Of a stretch of 64,000 bases of DNA, positions 3,475 to 15,120 are shown in pieces. The DNA lies in assembly GCA_017473865.1 (NCBI GenBank), contig JAFUJB010000016.1, positions 240,917 through 304,916 on the forward strand, given 5' to 3'. Below the pieces are notes generated by a model that ran no database searches, was not told the origin of the DNA, and was given only the letters and a program-made list of their open reading frames with translations. This DNA is from Clostridia bacterium. Its GTDB lineage: Bacteria; Bacillota; Clostridia; Oscillospirales; CAG-272. Position 1 is the stretch's first letter. The number at the start of each line of letters is the position of its first letter. Position numbers and translations under genes: made by a program.

Positions 3475-4077
3475 ATGACGCAAGCAGAGCGAAAACTTGC
3501 GTTACTCTGTAGCACCATCTCTGTAATAGCTAGGGATGGCCTTGACAAAACAACAACAAGAGCTATTGCAACCGAAGCAAATCTGAATGAAGCTTATATT
3601 TATCAGTTGTTTGACAGTAAAGAGGATTTATTCAAAGAAGTCTTTGCAACCTTAGATGATGAACTGGTTTCAATAATTCTTTTCCGCTTACCTGTAATGT
3701 ATATGGAATCTATGGACTTTGAAACCCGGTGCCGTGCGCTGTTCTTTTCTTGCTGGAGATTTATCCTCGGCAACAAAGATAAGTGTCTTTGTTTTATACG
3801 CTATTATTATTCGCCTTACTTTAAGAAATATTCATATGACGAACATAATAAGCGCTACCAAAGTGTTCTTGAAAAAATGACACCTGCCTTTCGTAAAAAA
3901 AGTAATGTTTGGATGTTGCTTAACCACATTCTGAACACAATGCTTGACTTTGCCGTAAAGGTGTTTAACGGAGATATAAATGATAATGACGATACTGCTG
4001 AACACGTATTTTTGGTTATTTACTCATCCGTTAAACCTTATATTGAACCCCATCATTTGATAAATAAGGAGGGATAA
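3475..4077 (+). CDS. TetR/AcrR-family transcriptional regulator
   Basis: N-terminal HTH: TTTRAIATEANLNEAYIYQLFDSKEDLF. 200 aa. Immediately precedes the sipW-like gene. Confidence 0.85.
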   Translation: MTQAERKLALLCSTISVIARDGLDKTTTRAIATEANLNEAYIYQLFDSKEDLFKEVFATLDDELVSIILFRLPVMYMESMDFETRCRALFFSCWRFILGNKDKCLCFIRYYYSPYFKKYSYDEHNKRYQSVLEKMTPAFRKKSNVWMLLNHILNTMLDFAVKVFNGDINDNDDTAEHVFLVIYSSVKPYIEPHHLINKEG

Positions 4078-4083
4078 CCAAAG

Positions 4084-4617
4084 ATGCAAATGGAAAAGAC
4101 GTTAAAAAGAGTCTGGGATGTTATTTCAACGATTGTTGTTGTTATAGTAGTAATATTTGCGATTCTTTTGGTTGGTGTGCGTTTGTTTGGTGTACAGGTA
4201 TACTCGGTTATTTCAGGTTCAATGGAGCCTGAATATCCGGTAGGATCACTTATTTATGTTAAAGAAGTTGATCCTTCAAAAATTGAAGTAAATGATGTTA
4301 TTACTTATGTGTTGCCTAATGATATGCCATCTACTCACCGAGTAATAAAAATTGATGCCGAAAAACAATTGTTTTACACAAAGGGAGATGCAAATAAAAC
4401 TGAAGATGGAGCACCGGTTCATTTTAATAATTTAATAGGTACTCCCGTTTTCAAGATACCGTGTCTCGGATATGTTGCTTACTATATTCAGCATCCACCC
4501 GGTATGTATATTGCTATTGCTGCCGGAGCAGTTCTACTGATACTTGTCTTTCTGCCTGATTTATTCAAAAAGGATAAGAAGAAAGACGAGCACCCCACAA
4601 AACAGATGGGGATATAA
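4084..4617 (+). CDS. sipW: Signal peptidase I, SipW/archaeal-ER type (S26B)
   Basis: N-terminal TM segment, then the S26B catalytic-serine motif SGSMEPEYPVGSL. C-terminal TM anchor (IAIAAGAVLLILVFL) as in SipW. Followed by cognate TasA-family genes. Confidence 0.8.
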   Translation: MQMEKTLKRVWDVISTIVVVIVVIFAILLVGVRLFGVQVYSVISGSMEPEYPVGSLIYVKEVDPSKIEVNDVITYVLPNDMPSTHRVIKIDAEKQLFYTKGDANKTEDGAPVHFNNLIGTPVFKIPCLGYVAYYIQHPPGMYIAIAAGAVLLILVFLPDLFKKDKKKDEHPTKQMGI

Positions 4618-4673
4618 TTCAGGGGTAACGCCGTAAGGCTCCCAAATAAATACTTTTTAAGGAGGTTTTTGTT

Positions 4674-5372
4674 ATGAGAACAAAAACGAAAGCATTGGCT
4701 CTGGCTCTTTGCGCGGTGTTACTCGTCGTTAGTACAGTATTCGTAACGATGGCATTCCTCACCGGCAGTGATTCGGTCCAAAACACATTCACGTTTGGTC
4801 AAGTTGGAATATCGCTAGACGAAGCAGAAGTTGACGCAAGCGGTAAAGTAAAAAATGGCGAAAACCGTAAATCTACAGATGGTCGTGTTGAGGGAAATGA
4901 GTATCATCTTATTCCCAGCCACAACTATGTGAAGGATCCTACGATCCACGTAGATGACGACAGCGAAAATTGTTTGCTGTTTGTAAAGCTTGAAAATGCT
5001 CTGGAGCCCATCGTTGCAGGTAAAAATACTTTTTCTGCTGAAGATCCTGCAGATACCGTTTATACCATTGAAGCACAGATGATGAAGAATGGTTGGACTC
5101 TTATTGACTCTGCCAATAACATTTGGGCTTACAATAAAGTCGTTGCTGAAAATGAACACATCAACGTGTTTGATGAGTTTACACTCACCGATAATGCTGA
5201 TGTCTCCAAGTATGCAACAGTAAAGGATGATCAAGGGAATGTTAAAGGTGGCAAAACAATCAAAGTAACCGCATACGCAGTTCAGGCTGACGGATTTGTT
5301 GAAGATACTACAGTTTCTCCCGATGACGCGAAGAACGCTTGGGGCGAAACTAAAGATTCCTTTGAAAACTAA
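4674..5372 (+). CDS. TasA/CalY (camelysin, peptidase-M73) family secreted fibre subunit with SipW-cognate signal peptide
   Basis: Signal h-region followed by MAFLTGSDSVQNTFTFGQV, which fits the SipW-cognate class A-[FY]-[FL]-[ST]-D…N-x-F-x-x-G. C-terminal VTAYAVQADGF strand. RBS AAGGAGG. Confidence 0.7.
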   Translation: MRTKTKALALALCAVLLVVSTVFVTMAFLTGSDSVQNTFTFGQVGISLDEAEVDASGKVKNGENRKSTDGRVEGNEYHLIPSHNYVKDPTIHVDDDSENCLLFVKLENALEPIVAGKNTFSAEDPADTVYTIEAQMMKNGWTLIDSANNIWAYNKVVAENEHINVFDEFTLTDNADVSKYATVKDDQGNVKGGKTIKVTAYAVQADGFVEDTTVSPDDAKNAWGETKDSFEN

Positions 5373-13838: not shown

Positions 13839-13852
13839 GAAAGGAGTATGAC

Positions 13853-14458
13853 ATGAAAAAGTATATCAATAAAAAATCAGTAATAATCGCGTCAGTAATG
13901 CTCCTTTTATTAGTGGCTGTTGGAACAACGCTCGCGTATATCTTCACAGAAACCGAACCCGTAGAGAACACATTTAACCCATCTAAGGTTTCTTGCGCTG
14001 TTGTGGAGGACGGTTATGAACCAGTCTCCGGCAAAATTCAAAACATCAGCGATAAAAAATCAAATGTCCAGATCAAAAACACCGGCGACACGGATGCCTA
14101 TATCCGTGTCGCAGTGGTGGTAAACTGGATGGACGAGGCCGGTACCAAGGTATGGGCGACAAAGCCAGTTGAAGACACAGACTATTCCATCACCTATGCT
14201 AACACAACCAACTGGGTTAAAGGTTCGGATGATTATTGGTATTACACAAAATCCGTACCGCCGACTGATGGAAACAATTTGACCGATATTCTTATTGAGA
14301 AAGCTACTCAGAACAAGGAAGGCCCAAAGGGTACCGATGGCACTCAGTATTGCCTCTCCATCGAAATTGTAGCATCTGCTATTCAATCGACTCCAGAAAC
14401 TGTTGTTGAGAAGCACTGGGGCGTAACAGTCGAAAATGGTGTCATTAAGGAGGGTTAA
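13853..14458 (+). CDS. TasA/CalY-family secreted fibre subunit (paralog 7)
   Basis: GTTLAYIFTETEPVENTFNPSKV. C-terminal IVASAIQSTPE strand. Confidence 0.65.
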   Translation: MKKYINKKSVIIASVMLLLLVAVGTTLAYIFTETEPVENTFNPSKVSCAVVEDGYEPVSGKIQNISDKKSNVQIKNTGDTDAYIRVAVVVNWMDEAGTKVWATKPVEDTDYSITYANTTNWVKGSDDYWYYTKSVPPTDGNNLTDILIEKATQNKEGPKGTDGTQYCLSIEIVASAIQSTPETVVEKHWGVTVENGVIKEG

Positions 14459-14460
14459 AT

Positions 14461-15120
14461 ATGAAAAGAATAATGAAACGCGTGTTTACCCTCCTCGCTG
14501 CCATTCTAGTCTTAGCAAGTATGTCGGTAACTGCTTTTGCGGCAGGCGCTGTAACATATAACGGCAATGCAAAAAAGTTCATTTTTGAACCCGGAAGCGA
14601 ATATTCACCTACAGATTTATTCACGGATTTCAAAGGTGTAATGCCCGGCGATAGCATCACACAAAAACTATTCATCAAGAACGATGTGTCAAACAACGTT
14701 AAGATCAGGCTTTACATTCGCTCTCTAGGTGCAAAAGAAGGTTCAAAAGACATTTTATCTAAATTGAATCTGAGGGTATCGCAAAATGGTGATTCTAACC
14801 TTTTTGATGCGCCTGCCGACCAAACAGCACAGCTTACTGAATGGGTATATATAGGCACATTTTACTCCGGTGCAGAAATTGATTTGAATGTCACACTTGA
14901 TGTACCGATAGATCTTGGAAATGAGTATCAGGAAGCCGTAGGCTATCTTGAGTGGCAATTTAAAGCCGAAGAATTACCCGTTGACCCTGGTGATCCGAAG
15001 CCGCCGCAAACAGGTAATACAACGAATCTAACCATTTATATCGCTCTTACGAGTGTGAGTGGACTTGTTTTAATATTCTTGCTGGTGTTCGGACGCCGCA
15101 GGAAGCAAGAAGAAATCTAA
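14461..15120 (+). CDS. TasA/camelysin-like domain protein with a C-terminal (S/P)PXTG sortase sorting signal. Candidate cell-wall-anchored base subunit.
   Basis: Ordinary SPase-I signal (…VTAFA/AGAV). Camelysin-like motifs MPGDSITQKLFIKN and GNEYQ…WQFKAEE. C-terminus is PPQTG + hydrophobic TM (LTIYIALTSVSGLVLIFLLVF) + a charged tail (GRRRKQEEI). Confidence 0.6.
   Translation: MKRIMKRVFTLLAAILVLASMSVTAFAAGAVTYNGNAKKFIFEPGSEYSPTDLFTDFKGVMPGDSITQKLFIKNDVSNNVKIRLYIRSLGAKEGSKDILSKLNLRVSQNGDSNLFDAPADQTAQLTEWVYIGTFYSGAEIDLNVTLDVPIDLGNEYQEAVGYLEWQFKAEELPVDPGDPKPPQTGNTTNLTIYIALTSVSGLVLIFLLVFGRRRKQEEI

Follow-up and report, generated by a model that had tools for sequence, protein, structure and literature searches.

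A candidate SipW-dependent surface-fibre operon of the BsaA branch, with a sialidase-bearing large protein and a predicted wall anchor, in uncultured Clostridia

We analysed a 64,000-nucleotide (nt) stretch of a Clostridia bacterium genome (GenBank contig JAFUJB010000016.1, positions 240,917 to 304,916 of the forward strand; hereafter the window), in which an initial annotation had proposed an array of TasA/camelysin-type genes between positions 3475 and 15120. Eleven co-directional genes occupy this interval on the + strand, namely those for a TetR regulator, an S26-family peptidase, six small secreted subunits (T1 to T6), an open reading frame (ORF) of 1602 amino acids (aa), a seventh subunit (T7) and a wall-anchor protein, X. 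Every ORF that had been proposed for this strand is present where it was placed. The features of the array are as follows.

3475..4077, + strand: TetR-family regulator, the first gene of the putative operon (PF00440, 2.6e-11)
4084..4617, + strand: SipW-type (archaeal/endoplasmic reticulum-type) signal peptidase I with a C-terminal transmembrane (TM) segment (TIGR02228)
4674..5372, + strand: T1, TasA/BsaA-type subunit, class 1; FLTGSDSVQNTF at residue 28; Asn, Glu and Lys columns present
5434..6081, + strand: T2, subunit class 2; SipW-type motif at residue 28; Asn, Glu and Lys columns present
6123..6728, + strand: T3, second class-2 copy; SipW-type motif at residue 25; Asn, Glu and Lys columns present
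6760..7527, + strand: T4, subunit class 3/4; PF12389 33.7 bits, TIGR04088 25.3 bits (cutoff 19)
7564..8298, + strand: T5, subunit class 3/4; PF12389 31.7 bits, TIGR04088 39.3 bits
8446..9015, + strand: T6, conserved subunit class, always directly upstream of the large-protein gene
9030..13838, + strand: secreted modular protein of 1602 aa with an ordinary signal peptide and GH33, vWA and CnaB-like domains
13776..13838, + strand: conserved tail of the 1602-aa protein (residues 1582-1602), KWLDGDSWCNNIFNSISKMFK, a candidate docking or donor peptide
13853..14458, + strand: T7, subunit class always found between the large protein and X; YIFTETEPVENTF at residue 29; Asn, Glu and Lys columns present
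14461..15120, + strand: X, wall-anchor protein of 219 aa, with an ordinary signal peptide, a beta-sandwich domain of ~150 aa, and PPQTG followed by a TM segment and RRRK

The genes of the array are separated by 2–61 nt, the exception being the 147 nt between T5 and T6. A Shine-Dalgarno site precedes nearly every start, one strong promoter-like site (TTGACA-17-TATTAT with a TG extension) lies upstream of the TetR gene at 3068-3096, and no strong intrinsic terminator-like site was found on the + strand within the array. Taken with the shared strand, these features fit a single operon spanning 3475-15120. T4 probably starts at 6778, since a ribosome-binding site precedes that position and orthologs agree. 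T1 and T7 are identical to NCBI entries IJ292_05360 and IJ292_05395, both annotated as 'hypothetical protein' in a 'Clostridia bacterium' metagenome-assembled genome (MAG).

The description of the first two genes as a TetR regulator followed by an S26B SipW-like peptidase with a C-terminal TM segment is borne out by the PF00440 match and by a TIGR02228 score of 105.9 bits (cutoff 51.85). The peptidase also scores 96 bits against NF046067, the SipW-Bacillus model, which is under its cutoff of 190, and it carries the motifs SGSMEP at residue 44, HR at residue 85 and GDAN at residue 101.

Seven ORFs, T1 to T7, share the motif A-[YF]-[LFI]-x7/8-N-[TV]-[FI] at the signal/mature junction together with a C-terminal A-x-[AG]-x-Q strand. 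Eight TasA/camelysin paralogs had been counted initially, but the eighth ORF, X, has neither the SipW-type motif nor the A-x-A-x-Q strand, and the number is reduced to seven. Each T protein contains the SipW-type motif a single time, always at this junction, and only three matches were found in ~26,000 residues of other ORF segments of the window; chance is therefore excluded as an explanation for it.

Comparison with curated hidden Markov models (HMMs), as proposed in the initial annotation for all eight ORFs, backs the family assignment for only some of the subunits. PF12389 exceeds its cutoff (22.5 bits) in T2 (24.2 bits, N-terminal part only), T4 and T5, covering only the N-terminal 60–80 residues; T6 matches weakly and T1, T3 and T7 do not match. 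TIGR04088, which describes the SipW-cognate signal, is over cutoff in T4 and T5 and scores 17.4 bits in T6 and 17.7 bits in T7. TIGR04090, the BsaA family model, gives 33–43 bits for T4 to T7 (34.2 bits over residues 15-224 of T4, 37.1 bits over residues 3-229 of T5, and 33.6 bits for T7), all under its cutoff of 60, with near full-length coverage of T4 and T5 and N-terminal coverage of T6 and T7. T1 and T3 match none of the curated HMMs.

Structure predictions, which are monomer models, point in the same direction. The AlphaFold2 model of T6 has a predicted local distance difference test score (pLDDT) of 85.6, and in a Foldseek search with it the TasA fibre 8aur was the top match (E 4.6e-4), followed by the archaeal bundling pilus 7ueg. 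Residues 25-42 are modelled as coil, as expected for an exchangeable donor strand that is unstructured in the monomer. In tblastn searches T6 matches genes on Enterococcus plasmids that bear the annotation 'TasA family protein', and the best of its matches sits in an array of genes annotated as signal peptidase I and 'BsaA family SipW-dependent biofilm matrix protein'. A profile built from the T proteins found more than 2000 proteins. Since some family HMMs score over their cutoffs and the T6 model matches the TasA fibre, we assign T1 to T7 to the TasA/BsaA superfamily, as a remote branch on the BsaA side, in agreement with the SipW-cognate array proposed initially; the results named there as refuting it, a lack of family matches or of a TasA-type fold, were not obtained. 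A camelysin-type metalloprotease role for the T proteins was considered and rejected; no motif in support of it was seen, and the name of the family is considered a misassignment of historical origin.

BsaA of Clostridium perfringens polymerises by donor-strand exchange, and an isopeptide bond between subunits, formed by N35 of the donor strand and K74 with E56 as catalyst, locks the polymer; mutation of N35, E56 or K74 abolishes polymerisation (PMC11580942). This triad is absent from TasA, and only ~100 homologues carrying it have been reported, mostly in Clostridia (PMC11580942). Three columns are kept in every one of the 44 aligned T proteins, which come from nine loci: the Asn of N[TV][FI], a Glu closing the first strand (..L.E) and a Lys after a PG turn. 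The Asn lies in the N-terminal extension, and the Glu and Lys are in the first two strands of the core. In a larger family alignment of 127 sequences the Glu is invariant and the Asn and Lys are at least 90% conserved. We infer from this arrangement that the three columns correspond to N35, E56 and K74 of BsaA.

Related loci (given L numbers where they must be told apart) show that the array is one instance of a recurrent module. Eight loci were seen whole (the window, L001/2, L003/4 and L006-L010), and all eight have the order SipW peptidase, two to six T genes, a large tail-bearing protein, T7 and X, with the same order of T classes; two partial contigs, L005 and L011, contain only the end formed by the large protein, T7 and X. 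The order of these last three is strictly conserved in every locus examined, the cargo domains of the large protein are exchangeable between loci, and the T genes fall into about six positional classes in fixed order. The identities across loci are as follows.

T1: 42-54%
T2/T3: 30-44%
T4/T5: 33-41% where the match is full length
T6: 59-69%
T7: 40-87% to positional orthologues
X: 64-92% among the top 120 homologues

The class of T1 provides the first subunit gene in every locus, its range being that to the first subunits of seven other loci, and the best matches of T3 are the class-2 genes of other loci. T2 and T3 look like a local duplication, the sole such pair among the T genes; T5 and T4 are 74% identical across their first 160 nt. 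As the pattern of identity between loci is sharply class-dependent, the T subunits are, T2 and T3 aside, best described from their sequences as old specialised paralogs and not recent duplicates.

Conservation is uneven along the module. Relative to L001, X is 91% identical, T7 87%, T6 69% and T1 to T5 39–54%, and the large protein has 58.6% amino-acid identity overall. At the nucleotide level, positions 12651-16187 of the window (the C-terminal third of the large gene, T7, X and two downstream genes) are 84% identical to L001, and the N-terminal two-thirds of the large gene and T1 to T5 are far more diverged. Such a mosaic suggests that cargo and shaft cassettes are exchanged by recombination on a base that stays conserved. 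A scan of genome contigs with the C-terminal 962 aa of the large protein returned one locus; viral contigs scanned for the locus returned nothing, and plasmids searched with the large protein's C-terminus gave no match.

The 1602-aa protein has been described as a secreted GH33/vWA/CnaB protein, of which the GH33 and CnaB-like parts stand and the vWA assignment is weaker in this copy. A GH33 sialidase (BNR) domain occupies residues 60-474 and matches PDB entry 4x47, an anhydrosialidase, at 3.8e-37; 4x47 is presumably the intramolecular trans-sialidase of Ruminococcus gnavus. In the alignment to 4x47 the RIP Arg, AAD.R, EA.VVE...R, the third Arg (R.NG) and the YSCLTE Tyr are all aligned, and the domain contains two exact S-x-D-x-G-x-x-W Asp-boxes. 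By these criteria the domain keeps its catalytic residues and is a predicted sialidase. The vWA region falls below cutoff for both PF13519 (25.8 bits, cutoff 27) and PF00092 (19.4 bits, cutoff 23.8), but it has a metal ion-dependent adhesion site (MIDAS) motif, DQSGS, at residue 693 and FTDG at residue 947, and many homologues have precomputed PF00092 or PF13519 matches. A CnaB-like DUF5979 domain is matched by Pfam at residues 1474-1577. No sorting signal was found in the protein, and PDB searches with its vWA and C-terminal parts gave no useful match. About 60 full-length homologues were found at 45–84% identity.

The most conserved feature of the large-protein family is the tail, which lies outside the DUF5979 match and has the consensus W-L-D-G-D-x5-N-x-F. 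The strict pattern is present in 103 of 120 homologues and most of the others have close variants (e.g. WLSGD...NQF); the homologues range from 1113 to 2421 aa with varied domain content. Large proteins of all the other loci carry it (WLDGDSSCVNEF, WLDGDSFSVNHF, WLDFATWCKNIF), in the form W[LI]DG[DG]x5NxF, on proteins that combine a sialidase with Flg_new, a sialidase with SHIRT, or, in two cases where the sialidase is missing, are SpaA-like (991 aa) or contain Flg_new (1143 aa). A homologue from a buffalo-caecum MAG that is just 37% identical terminates in WLDFATWCKNIF.

The tail fits the sparse motif [YFW][LFI]x7N[TVIL][FI] and can be set against the mature N-terminus of a T subunit in an ungapped register (T4 YLTDRDSAENVF against WLDGDSWCNNIF), and it is this match that gives rise to the idea of a C-terminal donor strand. 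Type V pili use donor strands of this C-terminal kind. Identification of the tail as a donor strand at the profile level was attempted and rejected, the resemblance being limited to the anchors [YFW]-L-x7-N-x-F.

X closes the array. The proposed sorting signal of PPQTG, TM segment and RRRK is confirmed by a TIGR01167 match of 19 bits (cutoff 15.9), and PPxTG is present in 108 of 120 X homologues. The signal peptide is of the ordinary type (AFA|AG) and has no SipW-type motif, 'LEWQFKA' takes the place of the AYAxQ strand, and X has no long N-terminal extension. Profile comparison of X with T by hhalign gives a probability of 49%. Within a 144-sequence set, several X members are hit by the T profile in their mature core, around ...MPGD..T..V.N...Y.R., with E values of 1e-4 to 3e-7; in a search of a representative library with X, the matches listed were strong X orthologues only, with no bridge to T. 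A role for X as an acceptor subunit with its own Glu/Lys pair was discarded, positions 43 and 69 not being conserved in 144 family representatives. X may at best be a diverged relative of the T proteins that lacks the lock residues, and not an eighth paralog.

With 1196 clusters at 50% identity, the family of the X domain is a large one, and many members have the domain at the N-terminus of a CnaB-like stalk ending in an xPxTG anchor. Two family representatives are chimeric: P0416 (206 aa) joins a T7-like SipW signal and donor strand, ATIAYLQDETVSIENNFTP, to an X-domain core, and P0488 (956 aa) combines a T-like signal, Flg_new, leucine-rich repeats (LRR), an X domain and a membrane anchor. 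These chimeras hint that parts of the module are physically coupled.

PPxTG is the motif class used by SrtB of Clostridioides difficile, and X, with (S/P)PxTG, a hydrophobic segment and a basic tail, fits the type of substrate of a class B sortase. A class B sortase (TIGR03064, 200–209 bits, cutoff 153.75) is the next gene after X in L005 and is found three genes further on in L001, and L006 has a nearly identical one in the same position as that of L001. A sortase of the kind for which the initial annotation had proposed a search is encoded next to the module in these three loci, but none was found within the window.

The closest known system is the bsa operon of C. perfringens (2020, PMC7395162; Kivimaki et al. 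preprint, PMC11580942), in which sipW is accompanied by bsaA, by bsaB paralogs, of which one has LPXTG in most strains, and by the gene of the vWA protein BsaC, with srtB next to the operon (PMC11580942). The authors of that work have also raised, as a speculation, the possibility that the LPXTG paralog provides anchorage to the wall (PMC11580942). The initial view that known loci lack such features is outdated by that operon. Shared between the two are a SipW peptidase followed by subunits remotely related to TasA, the Asn/Glu/Lys triad, a secreted protein with a vWA domain (putative in the copy described here), a small LPXTG-type protein (in most strains of C. perfringens) and an adjacent class B sortase (here in related loci). 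The array described here differs in having seven triad-bearing subunit genes of about six classes, whereas only BsaA keeps the triad in C. perfringens; in a vWA protein of 1602 aa that is fused to GH33 sialidase and CnaB-like domains and bears the tail; in a sorting-signal protein, X, that forms a separate and highly conserved domain family; and in being linked to an integrase, with no sortase in the window. We regard it as an enlarged and uncharacterised version of the bsa operon and not as a new kind of system. What is new relative to bsa is the set of about six triad-bearing classes in fixed order, the fusion of sialidase with vWA/CnaB domains, exchangeable cargo marked by the tail, the widespread X domain and the integrase linkage; a literature search found no description of a six-class expansion, a sialidase-vWA fusion, a cargo tail, an X domain or integrase linkage, and the genes carry annotations as hypothetical.

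On balance the evidence somewhat favours reading the locus as an operon for a SipW-dependent surface fibre of the BsaA branch in uncultured Clostridia, a fibre that would be assembled by strand exchange, a covalent lock, the tail and the X anchor. SipW would cleave the T subunits after the Ala of A|[YF][LF], and the freed N-terminal strand of one subunit would enter the beta-sandwich of the next by donor-strand exchange, as in TasA; the inserted strand would then be locked by a Glu-catalysed Asn-Lys isopeptide bond, by analogy with BsaA. The variable T1 to T5 would form the exposed shaft, with the conserved T6 and T7, whose genes flank that of the large protein, acting as adaptors. The large protein would be displayed on the assembly by way of its C-terminal tail, bringing sialoglycan cleavage or binding and metal-dependent adhesion, and X, joined to peptidoglycan by a class B sortase encoded elsewhere in the genome, would fix the assembly to the wall. 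In a plausible form of this arrangement, all subunits would belong to a single heteromeric fibre, with the large protein as its tip and X as its base.

Several points weigh against this fibre interpretation. The superfamily assignment draws on weak HMM matches and a predicted fold: PF12389 matches just 9 of 127 family members, and the T profile found no match among PDB sequences. C. perfringens BsaB is not incorporated into BsaA polymers (PMC11580942), and co-encoded paralogs therefore need not co-polymerise; in strain HN13, moreover, BsaA is associated with the membrane and not with the wall (PMC11580942). X has no donor Asn, Gln, Glu or Asp occupies its Lys column, and no Glu/Lys pair is conserved across its family. 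No sortase was found in the 64-kb window by tblastn with three sortases or with an active-site regular expression. With a position-specific scoring matrix built from 62 distinct T donor segments, the tail was the best window in just 4 of 120 large proteins, and an HMM of the donor segments scored near 0, with the tail as its best match in 6 of 64. Because these profile tests failed, we treat a role for the tail as a C-terminal donor strand as doubtful.

A broader function for the tail can be proposed only tentatively. It may be a portable docking or donor peptide by which interchangeable cargo (sialidase with vWA, Flg_new, SHIRT, SpaA-like or LRR) is attached to a TasA-type fibre or to a socket in X with no need of a sorting signal, possibly with formation of an Asn-Lys bond. 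Combined with the six subunit classes, this would amount to a third type of Gram-positive pilus, with a strand-exchange shaft, a tail-attached tip and a class B sortase base.

A rather unlikely alternative is that the module is a loose biofilm-matrix toolkit, in which one or a few T classes form separate homopolymeric fibres, as TasA and BsaA do, the large protein is an independently secreted sialidase/vWA enzyme of the matrix or of nutrient scavenging, like BsaC, and X is an unrelated wall-anchored protein encoded in the same operon. In C. perfringens, BsaB stays outside BsaA polymers, secreted BsaC is monomeric, and BsaA polymerisation continues when srtB is mutated (PMC11580942); the absence of the triad from X and of profile similarity between tail and donor strands are consistent with such independence. 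It is difficult to reconcile, however, with the strict conservation of the order of large protein, T7 and X in all loci examined, with the presence of the same tail on large proteins of otherwise unrelated domain content, and with the far greater conservation of X, T7 and T6 than of T1 to T5. The fusions P0488, of cargo with an X domain, and P0416, of a T7-like N-terminus with an X core, also argue against it.

It is unlikely, too, that the module encodes a two-part wall-anchored adhesin in which the large protein docks by its tail directly on sortase-anchored X, and the T fibres are separate or T7 alone serves as an adaptor. The tail and X are the two most conserved elements. The N-terminus left on mature X has too few residues to make up a complete donor strand, and the conserved N-terminal region of X has a low pLDDT of 39–52 in the model, as expected if it folds on a partner. 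Many X-family members place the X domain at the far end of CnaB-like stalks, and in P0488 an LRR cargo is fused with an X domain and an anchor. Only one fusion example was found, however, and docking of this kind leaves the constant company of two to six triad-bearing T genes unexplained.

The module is linked to an integrase. A gene for a tyrosine recombinase lies immediately outside the array, and two small genes follow X:

1950..3074, - strand: tyrosine recombinase of the phage-integrase family (PF00589, 3.4e-25; PF14659)
15180..16133, + strand: two cytoplasmic Cys-rich proteins, one of 92 aa (zinc-ribbon-like) and one of 223 aa (weak Pfam match to AP2, 0.0015)

The integrase is 77.5% identical to that in the same position in L001, and an integrase adjoins the module in six of the eight related loci that show the upstream end (L001, L003, L006, L007, L009 and L010). 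A TetR gene likewise adjoins the module in L001, in L006 and, on the opposite strand, in L008. The genes that flank the module vary between genomes, and no flanking att repeats were found (none of at least 12 nt exact, and no convincing imperfect repeat). In L003/L004 (16818-24641) the module abuts conjugation genes for a VirD4/TraG coupling protein, a VirB4/TraC-like ATPase and RepA_N, which suggests that it can ride on, or insert beside, an integrative conjugative element. That it is a mobile-element adhesin for cell-cell contact in conjugative transfer, comparable to aggregation substances, and not one for host or mucus adhesion, is nevertheless very improbable: the integrase, the varying flanks and the type IV secretion genes next to L003/L004 (VirD4/TraG, VirB4-like, RepA_N) would be in keeping with it, but there are no conjugation genes in the window, L001 or L006-L010 and no att repeats, and a sialidase predicted to be catalytically intact points to host glycans and not to bacterial partners.

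The two Cys-rich proteins, probably products of regulatory or mobile-element genes, are 59% (92 aa) and 88% (223 aa) identical to those of the same-position genes in L001, and homologues follow X in L001, L003, L006, L009 and L011. A Cys-rich family with the signature LIGKRFGKL...QRxWxCxCDCG travels with the module, usually as the gene next to X but in one case within the array, and is sometimes present twice (L001 16184-17131 and 18173-19135; L003 8757-9395 and 16004-16648; L009 10635-11087; L011 1414-2073). Immediately to the right of the block shared with L001 is a pair of genes for HTH_3 (- strand) and YpsA/SLOG (+ strand) proteins at 16505-17347, and such a pair stands immediately to the left in L001 (1669-2572); the YpsA proteins of the two are just 25% identical, and the pair may mark a preferred insertion neighbourhood or be a coincidence. 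At 533-985, ~1 kb from the integrase, a truncated-looking ORF of 150 aa matches AAA_14 ATPases (1.5e-17), and could be the disrupted insertion target of the island.

Two further regions of the window were noted. A block of low GC content (0.29, against ~0.42 elsewhere) at 32262-36183 follows directly after genes for tRNA-Leu and tRNA-Met (31676-31865) and encodes a 510-aa ORF with no Pfam match, an AAA_21 ATPase (1.4e-28) and an RloB-like protein (7e-25); the latter two, as an ATPase/Toprim-like pair, resemble phage-defence systems. At 25251-28010 lies a gene for a 919-aa protein whose only Pfam match is YidC/60KD_IMP in the first 220 residues, a length beyond what is usual for YidC.

Comparison of the proposed surface-fibre operon with systems other than bsa helps to place it. 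The tapA-sipW-tasA operon of Bacillus subtilis and the sipW-tasA-calY operon of Bacillus cereus also encode SipW-processed beta-sandwich subunits that undergo N-terminal donor-strand exchange, as proposed here (PMC9674648, PMC10151520), and the donation of a strand by TapA to start the TasA fibre (PMC10151520) is a precedent for a strand-donating accessory protein. Those systems, in contrast, have no Asn-Glu-Lys triad or isopeptide bond, no sortase signal, no large enzyme or adhesin and only one or two subunit genes, and the T proteins resemble TasA in sequence only in the N-terminal 60–80 residues. Archaeal bundling pili (AbpA) and Sulfolobus threads belong to the same superfamily of TasA-like folds as the T proteins, and the threads combine donor-strand complementation with inter-subunit isopeptide bonds (PMC9715654); unlike the array described here they are homopolymers of one subunit, with no pairing of SipW and sortase and no cargo protein.

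Sortase pili (SpaCBA, RrgABC) have a similar list of parts, i.e. a large vWA/CnaB adhesin, several shaft-like subunits and a wall-anchored base with a sorting signal. They differ in that T1 to T7 and the large protein have no sorting signal, pilin motif or class C sortase, and the associated sortase is of class B; X is the only sortase substrate, and polymerisation would be by strand exchange and not by transpeptidation. The same parts are found in a distant genus, where they have been annotated only, on plasmid NZ_CP021876 of Enterococcus wangshanyuanii (125968-144528): a signal peptidase I, a BsaA-family protein (343 aa), a 234-aa LPKTG protein, a second BsaA-family protein (295 aa), a T6-like protein (218 aa) and a 1124-aa protein that terminates ...SWDYKTNLFGKKAK. 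The LPKTG protein is inside the array there, unlike X, and was not detected by the X profile.

TasA-type fibres have been regarded as biofilm scaffolds of one subunit, and sortase pili as the only covalent tip-to-base pili of Gram-positive bacteria. The locus and its relatives suggest that Clostridia of the gut and rumen combine the TasA-type fibre and the sortase pilus. If this is true, it would account for the display of a mucin-directed sialidase on a fibre by uncultured commensals, it would assign a function to X and to the tail, both unannotated families, and it would offer a natural means of fixing large proteins to a fibre, with a possible use in protein engineering. The combination of a variable shaft with conserved ends is compatible with immune or phage selection on the exposed subunits, and the integrase linkage suggests horizontal spread of the system.

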